13,844 nt of DNA from a virus (Duplodnaviria; Heunggongvirae; Uroviricota; Caudoviricetes), in the IMG/VR virus record IMGVR_UViG_2711768045_000004; one strand, written 5' to 3'. The notes under the pieces are model-generated. The model did not search any database, had not been told where the DNA came from, and was given only the letters and a program-made list of their open reading frames with translations. Positions 3,002-13,560 of the stretch are shown piece after piece. A program made the translations under genes and the position numbers. How positions within the stretch are numbered: position 1 is the first letter of the stretch; each line of letters opens with the position of its first letter.

Positions 3002-3844
3002 ATCTCACACCTCCGGAAATCCCCGCTGAAGCCATCATTAATGCAACATCATCTTCGCTGACATCCACCACATCCGCAGAAGGTGAAATATCGCCCCCTC
3101 CGTCCCCTCCGAACCGGACGCCTCCGGCAACTCCTGTCGCTTTCTGCATCAGCATGTCTTCCTCGTCCGGCATCTCCGTCTGCTCTTCCTCACACGCTGG
3201 AGCAAGCAGACTGAAATCCGCCGGATGCATATCCGGATCGCCAAAAAACAGGCTGAGTACGGCGTACATCAGCCCGGAAAAATGAGCGTCCAGTTGGGTA
3301 TCCTGAAAATAATGCGTGCAGTAAAAACGTCGCCAGTCGGCATATTCGGTGGATGTCATCCCGGCAAGCATGGCGCGCCAGTCGGCTCTCCCCATCTCAC
3401 GCGCCAGTTTCAGGACAAAGTTCAGCTCGCCTTCGAATGCTTTTTTGATGTTACCGGCTCAGTCGCTTCTGCTTTCCCGGTTTGTTCAGGATCGGCATCG
3501 TGCCGGTTATCCAGCATACCTGAAAGATAAAGCACCCGGTTCGTTGCCTGATTCAGTGCATCAGCAGGCCATCCCAGCATCACTTCACGGCGGATCTGCT
3601 GCATCTCTGTCTCCGGAGAGGCCAGAGTGCCTTTGAGGGAATGGGAATGCCATAGCGACATCGCCACAAGCAGGGATGCCGTTTCCAGATATCGCTGGTT
3701 AATGTGCACGGCATCATGCTTCGTTGTCTCCTGTTGTTCTGCGTCTGAAACAAACTTTATATAATCAAACCGCTGCAGCGCGGACAGTTCCGACAGCGTG
3801 ACGGACACACCGTTATATTCAAATTGTTCTGTTTTCAGGAACAT
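2982..3844 (-). CDS. T: Tail assembly chaperone G-T fusion made by programmed -1 ribosomal frameshift at 3446..3440
   Basis: The -1 frame downstream of the slippery heptamer is open to the TGA at 2982..2984 and reads KKAFEGELNFVLKLAREMGRADWRAMLAGMTSTEYADW..., homologous to the lambda T part of gpG-T (..FDGELSFALKLAREMGRPDWRAMLAGMSSTEYADW.., from memory). The T frame has no credible independent start/RBS at the position-equivalent site. Confidence 0.8.
3422..3844 (-). CDS. G: Tail assembly chaperone G (zero-frame product)
   Basis: The track ORF 3422..3958 contains MFLKTEQFEYNGVSVTLSELSALQR..., matching the lambda gpG N-terminus. The in-frame ATG at 3844..3842 gives 140 aa (lambda G = 140 aa) and is preceded by GGGGAGGAG (RBS). 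The longer track start (GTG at 3958) would overlap V and is rejected. Confidence 0.9.
   Translation of the reverse strand: MFLKTEQFEYNGVSVTLSELSALQRFDYIKFVSDAEQQETTKHDAVHINQRYLETASLLVAMSLWHSHSLKGTLASPETEMQQIRREVMLGWPADALNQATNRVLYLSGMLDNRHDADPEQTGKAEATEPVTSKKHSKAS
3440..3446 (-). other. Programmed -1 frameshift slippery heptamer A AAA AAG
   Basis: Minus-strand sequence ...ACA TCA AAA AAG CAT TCG... in the G zero frame: the heptamer A_AAA_AAG is in the correct X_XXY_YYZ phase, 6 codons before the G stop, at the same relative position as lambda's G_GGA_AAG. Confidence 0.75.
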
Positions 3845-3860
3845 GCTTGATCTCCTCCCC

Positions 3861-4610
3861 TCAGCCCGCAGCGCCATCCGTGACGGTGATCTCCGCCACC
3901 GCCGCAAACTCACCATTGCCGGTGACAACAGGGATCTGTGCTTTACCTGCCGCAACACCTTTCACCGTGATCGTGTTCCCTTTCACGGTAATGGTGGCGA
4001 AATTCTGATTTGCCGACGTTGCGCGGAATGTTTTATCCGTTGCGCCTTCCGGCTGAACGGCCACAGTCAGGGTGGTGCTCTGACCTTTTGCCACATTCCC
4101 CGTTAGTGGCGTCACGGTAATACCGGTGACCGGTGTGATTTCTCCCCGATCCTCCGCCAGCGAAGGACGACCGATATTGGTGATTTTTACCGTACGGGTA
4201 ATCACTTCTTTGGCGGTCACCGCTTTACCAATGGCGCTCACCCAGCCACGGAACACATCCACCGTACCGTTCGGGAAGCGGATTTTGTAGGCCCGGGTCT
4301 CACTGCTGTCAAACCAGGCAATCAAATCACGCTGCCCTTTCTCGCCGGGCTTCCAGGCCAGCGTAAAACTGGTGTCACCGGCAGATTTCTGCCCCTGCCC
4401 GGTGGATACCCAGTCGGCATCCTCATCATCCAGATAGTTATCGTCGTAGGATTCCGCCGTCATCTCGCCGGGGGTCAGATCCTTTATTTTTGCCAGACGC
4501 GTCCACTCATCATCTGACAGCGGGTTTGCATAAGCATCGCCCTTACCGGTGTAAACCCAGAGCGTGGTGCCGGAACCTTTTACCGGCGCCAGGGGATTTG
4601 GTTTTGCCAT
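3861..4610 (-). CDS. V: Major tail protein V
   Basis: 249-aa ORF ([33 protein letters not shown]...), matching lambda gpV (246 aa), including the C-terminal Ig-like region (...[14 protein letters not shown]..). RBS GAGGA upstream. Confidence 0.95.
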
Positions 4611-5600: not shown

Positions 5601-5954
5601 TTATCGTCGCCGGTTAACAGCGGGTGGGTGCCCACGGTTGAGCCAGAGATAACAGCTGCCCCCGTCATCCGGAGAAACACGATCCACCCAGAACATCCCG
5701 CCGTTAATGGTCAGCGTGTCACCACGCCGCACGGCACGCACCGTATCCGTCCGCACAAATAATGACGGGCTGCTTCCTTCAATACGGACCCCGCCACCGG
5801 CAAAACCCAGCGACTCCGGATCGTCAAAAACCCCCTGAACTTCGCCGCCACGCTGTGCACCGGAGGTGAACTGCGCACGGATCCCCATCACTTCAACTAT
5901 CGTACTGTCCACCCCGGAGAGGGCAGCATCAAAGGCATTCTGAAAATCACGCAT
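5601..5954 (-). CDS. FII: Head-tail joining protein FII
   Basis: 117-aa ORF (MRDFQNAFDAALSGVDSTI...WVDRVSPDDGGSCYLWLNRGHPPAVNRRR), matching lambda gpFII (117 aa) with a near-identical C-terminus. The start overlaps the FI stop. Confidence 0.95.
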   Translation of the reverse strand: MRDFQNAFDAALSGVDSTIVEVMGIRAQFTSGAQRGGEVQGVFDDPESLGFAGGGVRIEGSSPSLFVRTDTVRAVRRGDTLTINGGMFWVDRVSPDDGGSCYLWLNRGHPPAVNRRR

Positions 5955-6315
5955 AAACGGCCATTCCGCTCTTGACCATGTCTTTTGCCTCTGAGGGAGG
6001 CATCAGAATTACTCTGCCAGCATCAACATACTCAACGGGCTCCCCTGTTTCATCGTCAACCCCACACAGGTAAAAACACTTCAGAAGTCTGATACGTTCC
6101 AGAATACCTAAGGCATCCTCATCGGTGTTCCTGTATGCCTGCTCATGAACGACATCATCAACACCTGAGATTTCATTTTCCGATGCGCAAACCTCCTCTT
6201 CCCACTCAGCCACACGCTGTGCGATATCCGCTGCACTCCCCGACATATCCGGCTCGCGCCCCAGCAGGCCAGCCAGTTCACGAAGACGTTTCTGATTTTC
6301 TTCTTTTGTTGCCAT
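5947..6315 (-). CDS. FI: DNA-packaging / head assembly protein FI-like
   Basis: Position between E and FII, and N-terminus MATKEENQKRLRELAGLLG.. resembling lambda gpFI (MTKDELIARLRSLGEQL..); the rest is divergent from lambda. Start placed at the ATG at 6315..6313 (about 122 aa); the track's GTG at 6342 lies inside the upstream hairpin loop. Confidence 0.75.
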   Translation of the reverse strand: MATKEENQKRLRELAGLLGREPDMSGSAADIAQRVAEWEEEVCASENEISGVDDVVHEQAYRNTDEDALGILERIRLLKCFYLCGVDDETGEPVEYVDAGRVILMPPSEAKDMVKSGMAVYA

Positions 6316-6331
6316 ATCCAGCCCCCCAGTG

Positions 6332-6360
6332 AAAAAAGACACGGGGGCATTTCGCCCCCG
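6332..6360 (-). terminator. Putative intrinsic terminator/attenuator hairpin immediately 3' of E
   Basis: Minus strand after the E stop: TAA TCCGGGAG CGGGGGC-GAAAT-GCCCCCG TGTC TTTTTT CAC. Perfect 7-bp GC stem, 5-nt loop, then a U-rich tract (UGUCUUUUUU). Confidence 0.45.
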
Positions 6361-6368
6361 CTCCCGGA

Positions 6369-7397
6369 TTATTTCACCTGTACCACCACAAACTCATCCG
6401 GATCCGGCAGCACCATCAGCGGTGCAGACTGCGTCATGGTGAATTCACGGGCCGGATCGCCCACGGTCAGCCAGTGTTTCGGGTAACGGGAAGAAGCCAC
6501 CACACCTTCGGACAACGCCTGCGCATCCTGAATGGCACCATAGCAACGGATGCCCTCAGCAGCCGTATTTCCCAGGACCAGCGTGCCCTCCGGCAAATAA
6601 CGTTTTTCGGTACCGTCCTCTGCCACATAAGACGTTTTCGCCACCACAATGGCCAGATCGCCGTAATACCCTTTGAAAGACACCACCGCCCCCAGGTCTT
6701 TCACTGCCGTTTCGAGTTGTGAATTTGAGCCGCGACGGGTATCCAGTTTTTCGCGGAACAGCTTAAAGCCATTCAGCAGACGCCAGACGGTACCGTCCAT
6801 AATGGCAATATTCACAAGACCGCTGGCCTGATCACAGAAAAGGTCGATATCATATGTCGGGTCGAACGTGTCACGGTCCTGTTTTGACCACTCCTTACCG
6901 CTACCCTGTATGATGTTATTCTTCGTCGATCTGCCAAAATCAACCTCAATTTTCTCGAACTGGTCTCCTTCCATGGTGTATTTGCCATACAGCACGGCAT
7001 TCACCGCCTGCACTTCTTCCACCTGGACAATGGCGTGCTCTTCCTGTTTGAGGTTATCGGTGATGATACGCAGACGACGGTAGGCCGGGTCGTTCAGTTG
7101 CGCCGGATCTTCACCGGGAAGGCGCTCCACCGCCTGCTGGTAATTAAATTCGTGTTTCGGCTTGACGTAGCCCGGACGTAACACGCGGGTTTCACCACCA
7201 CGATGACGCAGCACTTTTCCTTCAACAACCGGGGAGACATAGGCTGCCACCGGCGTTTTTCCGGTAATTTTGTCCAGCATCACCTCTTCGGTGTGGAAAT
7301 TCACCGTACGGCGGAAAAACAGTTCCAGAAACAGCGCACGAAATTTCACTTTTTGTTCGGTATAACCGAGTAACTGGCGGGTCGTAAACAATCCCAT
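6369..7397 (-). CDS. E: Major capsid protein E
   Basis: 342-aa ORF (MGLFTTRQLLGYTEQKVKFRALFLELFFRR...TGDPAREFTMTQSAPLMVLPDPDEFVVVQVK), matching lambda gpE (341 aa) throughout. RBS AAGGA 8 nt upstream. Confidence 0.97.
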   Translation of the reverse strand: MGLFTTRQLLGYTEQKVKFRALFLELFFRRTVNFHTEEVMLDKITGKTPVAAYVSPVVEGKVLRHRGGETRVLRPGYVKPKHEFNYQQAVERLPGEDPAQLNDPAYRRLRIITDNLKQEEHAIVQVEEVQAVNAVLYGKYTMEGDQFEKIEVDFGRSTKNNIIQGSGKEWSKQDRDTFDPTYDIDLFCDQASGLVNIAIMDGTVWRLLNGFKLFREKLDTRRGSNSQLETAVKDLGAVVSFKGYYGDLAIVVAKTSYVAEDGTEKRYLPEGTLVLGNTAAEGIRCYGAIQDAQALSEGVVASSRYPKHWLTVGDPAREFTMTQSAPLMVLPDPDEFVVVQVK

Positions 7398-7454: not shown

Positions 7455-7802
7455 TTACGGCAGCGCCGCGTGACTCAGGGCTGTGCCGACAAAGGCGTTG
7501 GCCTTTTTGTGTTCATCCACACGTTCAGGCCAGTGGATTGCCTCCGTCGCAAAGGTCCCCGACTTGTAATAGGTCAGCACCGTCTCTGTGCCTTCAAGCG
7601 GCAGTACCAGTATGCCAACCGCACTACCGGCTTTCTGTCCGTCCCAGACCACCAGTTTCCCGGTGGACTCATCCAGCATCAGGGGGGTCAGTGCCGGTGT
7701 TGCCTGAGAAATCCCGCTGCTGCCTGTGGCGGTATGAGCCGGATCATTACCGGCAAAAATACGTACTTCCGCACGTTGTTCAGTGATGGTTTTCGTCACC
7801 AT
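7455..7802 (-). CDS. D: Head decoration protein D
   Basis: 115-aa ORF (MVTKTITEQRAEVRIFAGNDPAHTATGSS...TPLMLDESTGKLVVWDG...YYKSGTFATEAIHWPE..), matching lambda gpD (110 aa). Confidence 0.95.
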   Translation of the reverse strand: MVTKTITEQRAEVRIFAGNDPAHTATGSSGISQATPALTPLMLDESTGKLVVWDGQKAGSAVGILVLPLEGTETVLTYYKSGTFATEAIHWPERVDEHKKANAFVGTALSHAALP

Positions 7803-7837: not shown

Positions 7838-8623
7838 TCATGGCATGGCCATGAGCATTTTCACGTCCGCATCACCGTCTGCTGACGTCTGTGGCACGCC
7901 ACCCTGCACCGCTGCCGGTGAATGGTTCGCCATGAAATGTTCAAACAGGGCGGTTGTGGATGCAGAAACCGGTTCTGCCTTACCTGATCCCGCAGCCAGC
8001 ACAGCCCGGGCGTTCTCCACGGTCATTCCCGGGCAGGCCGCCAGTTTTTCAGCCTGCGCCTCAGCCCCTTTTGCCTCCTCCAGATCCATAATCTGATCAC
8101 GGAGTGAGGGCCCGGCATCCGCCCGTGGTGCAGCCGCCAGGACAGGGCGGGCTTTTTCCACCGTCATATCCGACATCGCCGCCAGCATTGCCGCCAGTTG
8201 TTCACGACCTTTCGCTTCTTCACACGCCATAATGCGATCGGCTTCACTCTGCGCGGATGCCACCGGCTGCTGTGATGCTGCCGCGGCCAGAATCGCCCGG
8301 GCCTGTTCAACGCTCATGCCCTGTTGTCCTGCCAGCATCGTGGCAAGGTGTTCACGTCCTTTCGCTTCCTGACACGTCAGGATCCCCATCACTCGCTGGT
8401 TCTCCTGCGCGGCAGCTTCCGTTGCAGTTAATTGCGGCATAGTGCCTCCTGTATCATGTGTGTTCAGCGCCGCAGCCATCACGCTGATGGCATCCGACGC
8501 ATTGATTAATTCATCCGCCAGTCCGGCCTTAATACCGGACTGACCTTCAAAAACGGCAGCCTCTGTCCCCGTGACCGCATCCACAGACAGCCCGGTATAC
8601 ATCGCCACTTTTTCGGCAAACAT
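7838..8623 (-). CDS. nu3: Putative scaffolding protein Nu3 (nested in-frame internal start within C, sharing its C-terminus)
   Basis: By analogy with lambda, where nu3 starts in-frame at about codon 239 of C. The in-frame ATG at 8623..8621 (C codon 241, MFAEKVAMYTGLSV..) is position-equivalent. The start is not verifiable from sequence alone and the RBS is weak. Confidence 0.45.
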   Translation of the reverse strand: MFAEKVAMYTGLSVDAVTGTEAAVFEGQSGIKAGLADELINASDAISVMAAALNTHDTGGTMPQLTATEAAAQENQRVMGILTCQEAKGREHLATMLAGQQGMSVEQARAILAAAASQQPVASAQSEADRIMACEEAKGREQLAAMLAAMSDMTVEKARPVLAAAPRADAGPSLRDQIMDLEEAKGAEAQAEKLAACPGMTVENARAVLAAGSGKAEPVSASTTALFEHFMANHSPAAVQGGVPQTSADGDADVKMLMAMP

Positions 8624-9343
8624 CCGGTGCGCCGCATCAATGCGCTGCTGCATGTCCTGACGCACCTCTGACGGTAACGCTTCAAACTGATTGCCATCCA
8701 CCTTATGCGCCCCGGCATAAATCAGCGTGATATCCACTCCGGCCTGCGCCAGATGACCGGCATAGCTGACATGGCTCATCATCACGCCAATGGAGCCGAT
8801 ACGGGATGTCTGGGTAACCAGCCGTCGGGAGCAGGCCGACGCCAGCAGCATGGCTGCAGAACAGGCCGTGTCATTACACAGTGCCCAGACCGGCTTCTGC
8901 TGCCGGAGGCGGTAAATCATGTCAGCGCAGTCAAACGCGCCTGCGGCCTGCCCGCCCGGACTGTCAATGTCCAGCAGTACGCCCCGCACCTGGCTATCCG
9001 CCATTGCCTGCTGAAGACAGGCGACAATGCCGTCATAGCCTGTCATTCCGGAAAATGGCCGCATGCCACCCAGCCGGTGCACCAGCGTGCCGGTCACCGG
9101 CAGTACAGCAATACCGTTCACCACCCGGTAAACACGGGCCGGTCGTTTACCTCCGGCCATGTACTCGTCCGTTTCAGCCAGCATTCCGGGAGCATCAAGC
9201 TGTACCTGCTGTTGTGGTACCGAAAGACTTGCTGCCCCCATCTCGCGCCCGAGCGCGCAAAAGAAAACCCGCGCATAGGCGGGCTCCAGAAGCAGTGGTT
9301 CATTGAATGCTGCGGCAATAATGTGTGAAAGATTACGTCTCAC
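7838..9343 (-). CDS. C: Head maturation protease / scaffold C (S49/ClpP-like N-terminal protease domain plus C-terminal scaffold region)
   Basis: 501-aa ORF with a GTG start at 9343 preceded by GGAAGAGGAG, overlapping the B stop by 11 nt. N-terminus MRRNLSHIIAAAFNEPLLLEPAYARVFFCAL.. and the core (..VWALCNDTACSAAMLLASACSRRLVTQTSRIGSIGVMM..) match lambda gpC (439 aa, from memory). Confidence 0.93.
   Translation of the reverse strand: MRRNLSHIIAAAFNEPLLLEPAYARVFFCALGREMGAASLSVPQQQVQLDAPGMLAETDEYMAGGKRPARVYRVVNGIAVLPVTGTLVHRLGGMRPFSGMTGYDGIVACLQQAMADSQVRGVLLDIDSPGGQAAGAFDCADMIYRLRQQKPVWALCNDTACSAAMLLASACSRRLVTQTSRIGSIGVMMSHVSYAGHLAQAGVDITLIYAGAHKVDGNQFEALPSEVRQDMQQRIDAAHRMFAEKVAMYTGLSVDAVTGTEAAVFEGQSGIKAGLADELINASDAISVMAAALNTHDTGGTMPQLTATEAAAQENQRVMGILTCQEAKGREHLATMLAGQQGMSVEQARAILAAAASQQPVASAQSEADRIMACEEAKGREQLAAMLAAMSDMTVEKARPVLAAAPRADAGPSLRDQIMDLEEAKGAEAQAEKLAACPGMTVENARAVLAAGSGKAEPVSASTTALFEHFMANHSPAAVQGGVPQTSADGDADVKMLMAMP
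7955..8395 (-). repeat. Three tandem in-frame repeats (about 40-50 codons each) inside the C/nu3 scaffold-coding region
   Basis: Protein units RVMGILTCQEAKGREHLATMLAGQQGMSVEQARAILAAAAS / RIMACEEAKGREQLAAMLAAMSDMTVEKARPVLAAAPR / QIMDLEEAKGAEAQAEKLAACPGMTVENARAVLAAGS. The DNA shows the same repeats, e.g. ttcacgacctttcgcttcttcacacgccataatgcgatc versus ttcacgtcctttcgcttcctgacacgtcaggatcccc. Confidence 0.8.
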
Positions 9344-10925
9344 GTGGTGTTGTCTCCTCTTCCGGCCTGCGACTCTCCGCTATCTGCTGCTGATACGCCT
9401 GCGCTATCCACACCGGACGTGAGAGTCCGGCTTTTTCCCGCTCTGCAGATTCCCTGACCTGCTGGCGGAAAATGTCCTGATAATCCTCGCCCATCAGCGC
9501 CAGCTCTTTCTCATACGTGCTCAGTCCGGCCTCAATGCGCATCACTGATTCCTGAACCTCCTTGAGCCCGTCAATGGCCATTCTTCCGGCTCCAATCCAC
9601 TCAGCCCGTGACCAGGCTGATCGCGCCTGATAAAAATCAAAACGTGCCCGTGGCGGACGAATAATCCCCCGAAGAAGTGCCTCTTCCAGCCAGCAGGAAA
9701 ACATCTGCGTGGCCAGCCGGGACGCAATAAATTTTCGCCGCCCCATAAAATAGCGCCACGACTCATTGGCGGATGCGCGGGCACTTGAATAACTGACCTT
9801 CGAGTAATCACGGGACAACTGTTCGTAGGAAACGCCAAGACCGGCGGCGATATACCGCAGCAGCGCCTGTTCAAGCGCCGAAAATCCATTGTCTGAATCC
9901 TGCGCGGTCTGAAGTTTCAGATCATCACCGGGGAAAAGGTGCGGAATTTTGACACCGCCCAGCGTCACGCTATTCGTGTCATACCAGGTGGAGAACTTAT
10001 CCAGAATATTAATAAGCGGATTATCCTTCTGCCCCTGCGGCGCACCGGCGATATATTCAAAGGCCTTTTCGGTATCAAGGTCACTTTCAATCGTCGCTGC
10101 ATACATCGCCTTCACTATGGCCGACTGAAGCTGTGTTGCCTGCAGGGAATCGAGCATCTTCAGCCGTTCCATGACGCTGTAAAACTGATTGGCCCCACGG
10201 GTCTGCCCGTCCTCCACCGGCTCGAAAATATGCAGCATGGCCGGACGCCCGGTGGGAAGTTCACGCGGGATCCGTTCCCATCGTCCACTCCCGGAGAACG
10301 GAAAATCATCCTCACAGATATGGTACGCAACGGCACGGCCATATCGATCGACCTCCACACCGGCCCGCAGAAAGCGGTTCCCCATACCGTGCCCTGGCGT
10401 GTCCACCCGTTTCGGACTCACGGCTTTAAAACGCGTACGAAACAGCTGCGTGCTCTCCGTATCCCAGACCGGCTGCACAAAGATTTCGCCGTTAAAGGCA
10501 TGAACGCCCACACCTTCACGGATAAATTCCGTAAACGTGCGTTTCCCTTCCACGTCGATCTCGCCAAACATCCCTTCGGCGTATTCCGACCAGGCCGCCT
10601 CCACCTCATCGACAAAACTTTTTGCCGCAGTCTCCCGCATCCCCAGCCAGCGCCAGTTCGGACGGTAGCTGATCAGAAACATATGCCCGACAATATGATC
10701 CTTATGCAGGGCCACCGCATTAGCCGCTATCCCGTTATTGCGTACCAGATCATCTGCACGGGCATTCCCCAGACGCAACGCGGGCAGCAGGGCCGCATCG
10801 GCACTCTGCGAGGGTGGCAACCACTCCGCCATTTGCCCGCCAAATCCTGCACCGCCCCCGTGGTAGCTGAGACTCTCCCGAAGCGGAACGCCGTTCACAT
10901 CAATCAGGACAGGCGTTCGTTTCAT
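9333..10925 (-). CDS. B: Portal protein B
   Basis: 530-aa ORF (MKRTPVLIDVNGVPL...), size and position match lambda gpB (533 aa). ATG at 10925 overlaps the W stop as ATGA. Confidence 0.95.
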   Translation of the reverse strand: MKRTPVLIDVNGVPLRESLSYHGGGAGFGGQMAEWLPPSQSADAALLPALRLGNARADDLVRNNGIAANAVALHKDHIVGHMFLISYRPNWRWLGMRETAAKSFVDEVEAAWSEYAEGMFGEIDVEGKRTFTEFIREGVGVHAFNGEIFVQPVWDTESTQLFRTRFKAVSPKRVDTPGHGMGNRFLRAGVEVDRYGRAVAYHICEDDFPFSGSGRWERIPRELPTGRPAMLHIFEPVEDGQTRGANQFYSVMERLKMLDSLQATQLQSAIVKAMYAATIESDLDTEKAFEYIAGAPQGQKDNPLINILDKFSTWYDTNSVTLGGVKIPHLFPGDDLKLQTAQDSDNGFSALEQALLRYIAAGLGVSYEQLSRDYSKVSYSSARASANESWRYFMGRRKFIASRLATQMFSCWLEEALLRGIIRPPRARFDFYQARSAWSRAEWIGAGRMAIDGLKEVQESVMRIEAGLSTYEKELALMGEDYQDIFRQQVRESAEREKAGLSRPVWIAQAYQQQIAESRRPEEETTPRET

Positions 10926-11128
10926 AACCTCACTCCCAGCGGACGACGGCGACGGCGGGTTGTCCCCTGTACCGACTCCGCATCATTGATCGCACGGTTA
11001 AGCTCATCCAGAGAAGCCGCCGTATATTCAATTCTGCGACCATCTTTCTGGACAGACACCACCCGTTTACCGGTTAATAAATCAAGGCGCGCCTGACGCA
11101 GCGCCTGCAGTTCAGCGACTGTAACCAT
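10922..11128 (-). CDS. W: Head-tail joining protein W
   Basis: 68-aa ORF ([54 protein letters not shown]..), matching lambda gpW (68 aa; ..[27 protein letters not shown]..). Strong RBS GGAGGAG upstream. Confidence 0.93.
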   Translation of the reverse strand: MVTVAELQALRQARLDLLTGKRVVSVQKDGRRIEYTAASLDELNRAINDAESVQGTTRRRRRPLGVRL

Positions 11129-13061
11129 TCACTCCTCCGGACAGCTTCGCTGCCAGTTCTTTCAGGGTTGGCCGGGTCGTCTCTTCTTCCCGGGATTTTG
11201 CCAGTACAGCCAGATCAAGCTGCCAGCGTTGCACGGACACACGTAATGCCGCGTAGGCATACACCAGGCAGTCCAGCGCTTCGTTACGCCGCTTTTTGTT
11301 ATCCCACAGCAGACGCATCTTTCCTTTTTCCCACTTCTCCACCAGCTCTTCCGCCACCAGTTGCTGCGCCTCTGTCTGCGAAAAAATCTCCGGATCATCA
11401 GGAAAACGGATGGCATACGACGTGGCTGCATCCGCAGGTGTGGGATCGGCTTTCATACGGGCATAGAGAATTTCTTTTGCGGTGTCCGTCCCCACTTCAC
11501 ACAGATACACGCCCCGCTGATTGCGGGTTTTTGGCATGGTGATCACCGGCTTGCCATAGACAGATGCGCCTTTTACCGGCAGCACCCGGAAAACACCGTG
11601 TTTTTTTGATCTCTGATAAACGATTTCGCCATCGATCCCCCCGGTGTCCCAGCAGACCCGGGAAATGGTCATTTCGGTTCCGTCTGCATGGCGGTATTTT
11701 TTGTTGATCGCCGCATCCACACGTAACAGCGTCTCTTCCTCATCGGGACGCCCCATAATGATGATTTTATCCACCAGAAAGGCTTCCTCTCCCGGAGCCC
11801 ATCCCCAGACATACATCTCAAAACGGTTTCGCTGCGAGTCAATGCCCGCCGTCAGATAAACCACCCGGGCAGGCACCGCCGCCGTGTAACGCACAACCTT
11901 ATCCATCAGTACCTGGTGATCGAGTTTTTCGCCCACGGCCTCTTCCCAGGTCTCGCCCAGCGTGGTGTTCACAAAAGTTTTCACGCCGTTGGGATCTTTC
12001 AGTGCATCCAGCCAGTCATAGACTATCTGTACCCAGGTAGTGAACGGACTGTACGCCGTCCAGATATGGAACGTGATGGAGCGCGGCGGCGGAATTTCAT
12101 TACCCGCAGCGCTGAAAAACGTCAGACCATCACGGGTCCACATCCCCGTGTTTTCACAGATCCACCGCCCGTTGCTCTGGTCAAGCTCAGACTGATGGAT
12201 CACGCAGCCATGATGTTCACAGAGGTAGAAAACGCTTTCGGGGCTGTCCTTCTCCCATTTAAGGCCAAAAGGCGTGGACTCATCGCCAAATTTCAGATAC
12301 TGCTCCTCCCCACAGTGTGGGCAGGGCACATAAAAACGCATGAAATGCGCCGACTCATTGGCCGCTTTTTCGATCTGGCAGGAGCCTTTTATTTTAGGCG
12401 TCGAGCCGCGAATGGATTTTGGCCATACAGAGCCCTCAATACGCTTATCCCCCAGCAGGGTTGGCGAGCCCTCTTTTTCAACATCCGGCTCGAACGAGGA
12501 AAGCTCGTCATAACAGACCACGTCCACGGATTTTTCACGGTAGTTTTTGGCGGCAGCGCCGCCCAGGCACCAGAACCCAACACGTGACGTAAACCTTTTT
12601 AATGTCAGCGTGTTATCCCTGTGCTTACGTCCCAGCCAGGGGGAAAGAATTTTCAGACAAGGGACATCCCGTAACGTTGACTCCACGTGAGATTTCATAA
12701 AATCTTCAGCAGATGAATCTGTCGGTTGGAACAATAAAGTGTTACGGCTTTTATGCTCGATAAAATACCCGACCACGCCCAGTAACATCTTTGTATAACC
12801 AACACGGGCAGATTTAATCAGATTAACCGTGCGGATCCGGTCATTCCCCATGCAGTTCATTATTGCCATCTGAAATGGCAGAGTTTCCCAGCGACCAGCA
12901 AGATACGAAGACTCTGGTGGTAGATAATAATGTCTGTCAGCCCACTCAACTGGCGTCACAGGCAATGGCCGAATCATCCCCTTTAACCCGGCCCGGAATG
13001 GAAAAACAAACTTATGAATTTGACTCTCTAATGTAGTCTGCAAGCATATCTGGTAACCCAT
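11112..13061 (-). CDS. A: Terminase large subunit A (ATPase/endonuclease)
   Basis: The track ORF 11112..13076 (654 aa) matches lambda gpA (641 aa) from ..[31 protein letters not shown] onward through the ATPase and nuclease regions. Start is uncertain: the ATG at 13061 is chosen here; alternatives are the GTG at 13076 or the TTG at 13043. Overlaps the 3' end of nu1, as in lambda. Confidence 0.93.
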
Positions 13062-13560
13062 CTGCAGTATCCGCACACTTGTTAGATGCTTTTGCTATCT
13101 CCGATTTCAAAAACTCAAGGGCGGAAGGGGGAAATTCAGGGAATTGTCTCTGCATATACAGTGGAATACTGTCAAGAATACCGGAAATGTCCTGCGCAAG
13201 ACGCGCCAGTGCATACATACAAAAACCAGTATCAATCACCTGCCCACTGTCGCGGGCATTTTTCAGTTCCTGTGCATCTGCCTGTGCCTTCGTCAGTCGG
13301 TAACGTTCGTAATCAATGGTACCGGGCTGAAGGTCAGTCTCGCTGGCAGCTCTCAAATCTTCGACCTCTTTACGGAGTTTTTCGTTTTCAATATCGGCTT
13401 CACGCTGCGCATACCATTCGATCGCCTTCGCAGAATCAAAAATGATCTCAATACCTTTTCCTCCACCAGATATCTGAGGGAGCCCCTGAGTTTGCCAGCG
13501 TTCAATTGTACGCGGATCAACATTAAACATTTCCGCAAGGTTCTTTTTGTTAACATGCAT
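13012..13560 (-). CDS. nu1: Terminase small subunit Nu1 (N-terminal winged HTH that binds cosB)
   Basis: 182-aa [73 protein letters not shown]..., about 60-70% identical to lambda Nu1 (MEVNKKQLADIF..., 181 aa). RBS GAGG 9 nt upstream of the ATG at 13560. Confidence 0.95.

Follow-up and report, generated by a model that had tools for sequence, protein, structure and literature searches.

Bacteriophage lambda and its relatives combine the protease and the scaffold of the head in one stretch of DNA. In lambda, the C gene encodes an S49 protease, carries the scaffold gene nu3 nested in frame and lies between the portal and the D/E genes. The way in which a lambda-type scaffold makes contact with the capsid shell has been only poorly characterized. 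Interactions of lambda Nu3 with the capsid protein E, with C and with itself have been reported, as has a requirement for Nu3 in portal incorporation; self-association is supported by yeast two-hybrid results and a personal communication, as cited in the same source, which also compiles the Nu3-B dependence and the interaction of C with Nu3 and its degradation (PMC3224144). The closest described system is phage 21, whose head genes are laid out in GenBank record M81255.1 ('Bacteriophage 21 head gene operon'). That record places a gene 6 of 200 aa inside gene 5 (501 aa), gives gene 6 a putative ribosome-binding site of its own and marks three repeat_region features within it, named 'Tri1 box', 'Tri box' and 'Tri3 box' and described as 'function unknown; putative'. 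Our literature search on the Tri boxes, the phage 21 head genes and Nu3 repeats returned no paper; the original phage 21 publication lay outside its coverage, and the GenBank notes are the source used here.

We analyzed a stretch of 13,844 nucleotides from a virus of the Caudoviricetes (IMG/VR record IMGVR_UViG_2711768045_000004), hereafter the window. Its open reading frames form a lambda-like morphogenesis cluster of an E. coli prophage on the minus strand, in the order A, B, C, D, E, FI, FII, Z, U, V, then G/T and H (Table 1). The ORF list and tblastn comparisons placed the 501-aa gene of interest with the portal gene on one side and the decoration and major capsid genes on the other, as in the lambda head module. 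Elsewhere in the cluster, the minus strand carries GGGAAAG at 3472-3478, near the end of the G-like ORF (3422-3958); a lambda-type G/GT -1 frameshift in the tail assembly chaperone genes would be expected at just such a slippery heptamer. The FI-like packaging gene (5947-6342, minus strand) is only 48% identical to the FI gene of an E. albertii prophage (locus L004, 5507-5908), whereas identity to the same prophage is 93-97% in the neighbouring genes E, FII and Z, a pattern of mosaic replacement of FI.

Table 1. Features of the head gene region, with positions in the window and the basis for each assignment.
Feature	Position	Strand	Basis
Terminase ORF	11112-13076	minus	ORF list
Portal (B-like) ORF	9333-10925	minus	ORF list; 62% identity to lambda B (tblastn against lambda DNA)
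Gene C / phage 21 gene 5 homologue, S49 prohead protease plus scaffold domain, 501 aa, GTG start	7838-9343	minus	ORF translation
Peptidase S49 domain (SppA/ClpP-fold), aa 146-293	8465-8908	minus	Pfam PF01343, E = 1.4e-35
AGGAGG ribosome-binding site of the nested scaffold gene (putative)	8445-8450	minus	Sequence; phage 21 context
Nested in-frame scaffold gene (Nu3 / phage 21 gene 6 homologue), 200 aa	7838-8440	minus	ATG at 8438-8440; phage 21 annotation
Repeat unit 1, aa 315-358, approximately 'Tri1 box' (8270-8373)	8270-8401	minus	Unit HMM, 86.6 bits; Tri box mapping
Repeat unit 2, aa 365-408, approximately 'Tri box' (8123-8233)	8120-8251	minus	Unit HMM, 82.9 bits; Tri box mapping
Repeat unit 3, aa 412-455, approximately 'Tri3 box' (7979-8092)	7979-8110	minus	Unit HMM, 82.6 bits; Tri box mapping
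C-terminal tail, aa 456-501 (…ALFEHFMANHSPAAV…KMLMAMP)	7841-7978	minus	Alignments
Decoration (D-like) ORF	7455-7802	minus	58% identity to lambda D (tblastn)
Major capsid (E-like) ORF	6369-7397	minus	61% identity to lambda E (tblastn)

The 501-aa protein matched PHROG 53 ('head maturation protease') end to end (E = 7.8e-223), and its PF01343 match scored 123 bits against a cut-off of 24.9. The internal start lies in the context AGGAGG-cact-ATG (8438-8450), the core of which (GGAGGcact-ATG) is common to phage 21 while the bases upstream differ. The complete phage 21 genome (OL657228.1) has the same internal start context and the same nested CDS is annotated in it; the start also corresponds to Met309 of the lambda-type C protein, which is preceded by a Shine-Dalgarno sequence. 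Phage 21 gp5 aligned with the 501-aa protein at 95% identity and with zero gaps, sharing its architecture (501 aa plus a nested 200 aa). The 27 substitutions between them are concentrated in the second of the repeat units and in the linker that immediately precedes the internal start, and the nested 200-aa domain was 91.5% identical to phage 21 in tblastn searches against phage records. As read from these sequence comparisons, the gene product is an S49 prohead protease whose C-terminal 200 residues are common to a putative scaffold with an in-frame internal start. Public annotations of the nested start are inconsistent. In the HK630 record, nu3 is given as 201 aa from Met239 of C (2200-2805), with no Shine-Dalgarno sequence upstream, and the HK630 ATG that does carry one (caggagggcgaATG) is Met309, equivalent to the start of phage 21 gene 6. 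In phage D2 (OM475427.1, 1486-3000), C is lambda-like for its first ~110 residues and phage 21-like thereafter, which places a recombination joint inside the protease gene.

The initial annotation had proposed that the scaffold region contains three tandem, diverged, in-frame copies of one unit, visible in protein and DNA alike. The unit HMM recovered all three and defined a span (7979-8401) in close agreement with the 7955-8395 proposed. A DNA repeat search returned a three-copy family (7985-8030, 8126-8171 and 8276-8321) with 74% identity; as the spacings of 141 and 150 nt are multiples of three, the copies are in frame. BLOSUM62 local scores between units ranged from 87 to 110 against shuffle means of ~25 (SD ~5), which corresponds to z = 13-18, and the observed score was reached in 0 of 2000 shuffles. 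PHROG scaffold families also matched three separate stretches of the protein. Tandem Repeats Finder reported only a 12-nt micro-repeat in the region, because the units are too diverged for it, and Pfam contains no model for the repeat unit. When mapped to the window, the phage 21 Tri boxes coincided with the cores of units 1-3.

The core motif written in the initial annotation occurs in all three units but is slightly idealized, as some of the residues that it gives as fixed vary. The spacing from [IV]M to EAKG is 5 residues in unit 1 and 2 in units 2 and 3. In addition, unit 1 reads QEAKG instead of EEAKG, unit 2 has D-M-T-V in place of G-M-T-V, and unit 3 has Q-I-M where R-I-M was given. The underlying Nu3 module of ~45 residues (…RIMGIL.CEEAKGRE…LA…GM[ST]V…A..ILAAAP) is thus present three times in the 501-aa protein. 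Alignments across the family identified the unit as the best conserved part of the scaffold domain, with E-A-K-G-R-E and L-A nearly invariant.

We compared the protein with lambda C via HK630, whose C is of the lambda type. The length that the initial annotation gave for lambda C was correct (439 aa against 501 aa), as was its tentative statement that the motif occurs there only once: the HK630 alignment and the unit HMM gave one full copy. Overall, the lambda-type protein is 53-57% identical to the 501-aa protein and aligns with it along the protease, and its module (ENxRIMGILxCEEAxGRE…PGMTV…ILAAAP) is 57-60% identical to unit 1. Its Shine-Dalgarno-bearing internal ATG, at aa 309, lies at the place equivalent to the nested start described here. 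It differs in having one unit, an extra low-complexity linker of ~36 aa before that unit and another C-terminal tail. The linker, which is absent here, partly offsets the two extra units, so the net gain is 62 aa. These differences recur in the alignments of the wider family. Multi-copy proteins combine a short linker with an F-x-x-F/Y-M…SP…AV…M-P tail, whereas single-copy enterobacterial proteins have a T/A/Q-rich linker of 50-60 aa and a tail of the form …ARSDTALDRLM…LLNTPV. The tail at aa 456-501 is specific to the multi-copy clade, with …ALDRLM…LLNTPV in its place in lambda. In single-copy proteins (in HK630 C, aa ~405-439), the stretch after the unit (…SAQARSDTALDRLM…) lines up with the beginning of unit 2 (…SAQSEADRIM…) in the three-copy proteins; judging from this alignment, helix 1 of a second unit may have been present in the ancestral protein already, or the register of the duplication may have run from EAKG to D-R-I-M.

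Comparing copy number across related prophages, as the initial annotation had suggested, revealed a family that spans 1 to 4 copies. We scanned the C homologue with the unit HMM in 80 loci from species-representative genomes, ~72 of which were usable (near full-length). About 65 of these ~72 homologues from other bacterial species had one unit; they came from Enterobacter, Klebsiella, Kluyvera, Citrobacter, Vibrio, Photobacterium, Pseudomonas, Marinobacter and other genera. Among the 80 loci, three units were found only in E. coli, E. albertii and Shigella (93-96% identity), Trabulsiella guamensis (70%) and Providencia alcalifaciens (61%), and one Buttiauxella prophage had two. Three units were also present in Salmonella prophage proteins, including the Gifsy-1 homologue. 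A second census took the best 150 representatives after clustering at 50% identity and an exhaustive HMMER search. One unit was detected in 98 of these 150 nearest cluster representatives and three units in a single one (59% identity); another was a deletion variant, and the 50 with no unit were roughly half short fragments, the others being full-length proteins with no detectable unit. Homologue searches with the Nu3 domain, ranked by shared words, returned mostly fragments and were used to find variants rather than for the census. Within complete E. coli genomes, the allele described here (at least 80% of the gene covered) occurs in 1866 of 5426, and the lambda-type single-unit tail in 3201 of 5426.

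Because most relatives carry one copy, the single-copy state is ancestral and the three-copy state derived; the opposite pattern, in which most relatives carry three, was not seen (98 of 150 have one). We rejected a loss of two copies in lambda because nearly all outgroups have one copy. Among the retrieved loci, near-identical lambda C genes also appeared on low-coverage contigs, some of ~48 kb, in genome assemblies from unrelated organisms, including Neobacillus, Chromatium, Kitasatospora, Shewanella, Pseudomonas, Oceanobacillus, Leeuwenhoekiella, an Akkermansia MAG, Herbaspirillum and Enterococcus. This looks like contamination of public genomes with lambda control DNA.

The age of the expansion emerged from a tree of the units. 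All the copies of unit 1 grouped together and with the single units of the lambda-type proteins; unit-2 and unit-3 copies each formed a cluster of their own, and these two clusters were sisters. The units are therefore orthologous by position in the E. coli, Trabulsiella and Providencia prophages, a clade in which the proteins are 61-96% identical, and the triplication is older than the split of these versions. The initial annotation had described a local in-frame expansion of the Nu3 domain. The expansion is indeed in frame, derived and downstream of the internal start, but it is not local, being ancient and fixed in a large clade. Codon positions carry the same signal: between the units of this gene, identity is 0.62-0.74 at positions 1 and 2 and 0.40-0.45 at position 3, which is close to randomized. 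Positional orthology and near-randomized third positions led us to reject a recent local duplication. In comparisons of orthologues, dN/dS was 0.14-0.23 for the units in diverged pairs and 0.08-0.11 for the protease. Unit 1 (~0.11) evolves like the protease, and units 2 and 3 (0.2-0.4) evolve faster. Together, the codon-position pattern and dN/dS indicate that all three copies are old and are maintained at the protein level by purifying selection. That this is a phage 21-type gene, that its expansion is ancient and that the repeats had been annotated before are all but certain, and the triplication is an already known property of phage 21-type head genes, ancient and widespread.

The same data bear on whether the repeat could act as DNA or RNA, for example through protein-binding sites or RNA structure, with the protein similarity as a by-product. 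In phage 21 (OL657228.1; locus L087), two matches to the CII binding-site consensus pattern (ttgynnnnnnttgy) lie at 1506-1519 and 1740-1753 inside gene 6 but on the opposite (minus) strand, one of them in unit 2, as a nucleic acid function might have it; these matches are probably due to chance. The greater likeness of the units at codon positions 1 and 2 than at position 3 and dN/dS below 1 point the other way, it is the amino-acid core and not the DNA that is conserved in distant relatives, and the window returned zero Rfam matches. We consider this explanation extremely improbable and, on the codon-position pattern and dN/dS, rejected a DNA-level function.

Copy number also varies in nature. 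About 105 of the 5426 complete E. coli genomes carry a four-unit allele (WP_096934546.1, 538 aa), which was seen in E. coli STEC309 (NZ_CP041435.1; locus L085, 1927-3543) and also in locus L084; it belongs to the same gene family as the three-copy gene and has the same short linker, type of C-terminal tail and head-gene context. Its units 2-4 are 82-90% identical in protein and only ~50% identical at third codon positions. They are therefore old copies kept alike by selection rather than recent duplicates. At the other end of the range, five natural E. coli variants included an in-frame loss of unit 2, an in-register hybrid of units 1 and 2 and a partial deletion of unit 2; in one type of variant, the deletion runs from the end of the protease into unit 2. 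Their sequences are consistent with repeat-mediated recombination, and the existence of alleles that lack unit 2 or carry the hybrid suggests that three copies may not be strictly required. Such variants, together with the 1-to-4-copy range of the family and the protease-like constraint on unit 1 relative to the looser units 2 and 3, could mean that the additional units are largely redundant, harmless passengers of slippage or unequal recombination and that unit 1 alone is functional. We regard this as improbable. Units 2 and 3 retain the invariant core in every member of the clade, down to 61% identity and with synonymous sites saturated, and the protein-level likeness of units 2-4 in the four-copy allele, set against their diverged third codon positions, signals selection on each copy. 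Furthermore, the long lambda linker has been lost in the multi-copy clade, which suggests compensation.

The initial annotation had anticipated helical scaffold modules, and structure prediction returned a single unit as two helices, the first of them long, separated by a turn (pLDDT 76). For the 200-aa protein, AlphaFold2 with a 39-sequence alignment modeled helical units with pLDDT of 70-84 joined by poorly defined linkers, and the pTM of 0.28 implies no fixed packing between the units. The two models, both of moderate confidence, disagree on helix 1, which the longer model breaks at the EAKG turn. Searches for structural relatives returned no match for the sequence among PDB chains (phmmer) and no significant Foldseek match for the 200-aa model, as expected for a flexible string with such a pTM. 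The hits in fold searches were generic helical hairpins and uninformative, and neither the PDB sequence search nor the fold searches detected homology to a P22-type coat-binding domain.

Predicted amphipathic hairpins are of the kind that bundle, and lambda Nu3 is itself reported to self-associate (PMC3224144). The units could thus be modules for scaffold self-association rather than for capsid binding, in which case triplication would change the oligomeric state and mimic, within or between chains, the oligomer of a single-unit Nu3. AlphaFold, however, did not pack the units against each other with confidence (pTM 0.28), and we think this reading somewhat unlikely.

The most likely role of the nested region is, as we infer it, that of a multivalent Nu3-type scaffold that doubles as a domain for targeting the protease. 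An ancient tandem duplication, in frame, gave rise to the two additional modules, which purifying selection maintains; each module would form an independent helical hairpin on a flexible string. By way of this module, the Nu3-type scaffold and the protease, which ends in the same tail, would engage the major capsid protein from within the growing shell. This reading draws on the conservation of the module within the scaffold domain and on the interactions reported for lambda Nu3 (PMC3224144). A chain with three modules would be multivalent and could bind as many as three capsid subunits or partner chains. Multivalency may thereby replace the reach and weak self-association that lambda would obtain from a long disordered linker and a single module, and the shared tail would carry the protease into the procapsid. 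We consider multivalent capsid binding by the modules plausible, if somewhat short of an even call. The statement as a whole, of a phage 21-type C/Nu3 pair with three modules, mechanism included, strikes us as evenly balanced between right and wrong.

The partners of the units could also be the portal or the S49 protease, which degrades the scaffold before packaging, so that the units would serve for docking or cleavage instead of shell binding. The dependence between Nu3 and B and the interaction of C with Nu3 and its degradation (PMC3224144) would fit such a role, and cleavage might take place in the linkers that separate the units, which are rich in Ala, Pro and Gln. The portal, though, is present in few copies (12) compared with the amount of scaffold, and we judge docking or cleavage improbable as the function of the units. 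Returning to capsid binding, a stronger version would make the number of modules (1, 2, 3 or 4) a selected, tunable parameter that sets the valency and stoichiometry of the scaffold and is traded against the long disordered linker of lambda-type proteins, each module binding the capsid. This version is possible, although we find it doubtful. If it were true, lambda-like heads would offer a natural series on the control of T=7 assembly by scaffold valency.

The triplication itself is close to textbook knowledge, since the Tri boxes entered the GenBank record of phage 21 some three decades ago and roughly one third of complete E. coli genomes carry the allele. The point is a modest one, for specialists, and holds no surprise. 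What is minor and possibly new is the range from 1 to 4 copies, the four-copy allele and the natural deletion variants. The natural series of one, two, three and four copies, each copy under purifying selection, provides a genetic handle on the function of the Nu3 module. The proposed working principle has a counterpart in scaffolds of the P22 gp8 type, in which a small C-terminal helix-turn-helix hairpin on a flexible, largely extended chain is believed to touch the coat protein from inside. The likeness is in working principle only: the P22 scaffold carries a single hairpin for coat binding and no fused protease, whereas the gene described here carries three predicted hairpins in a domain common to the putative scaffold and the protease.
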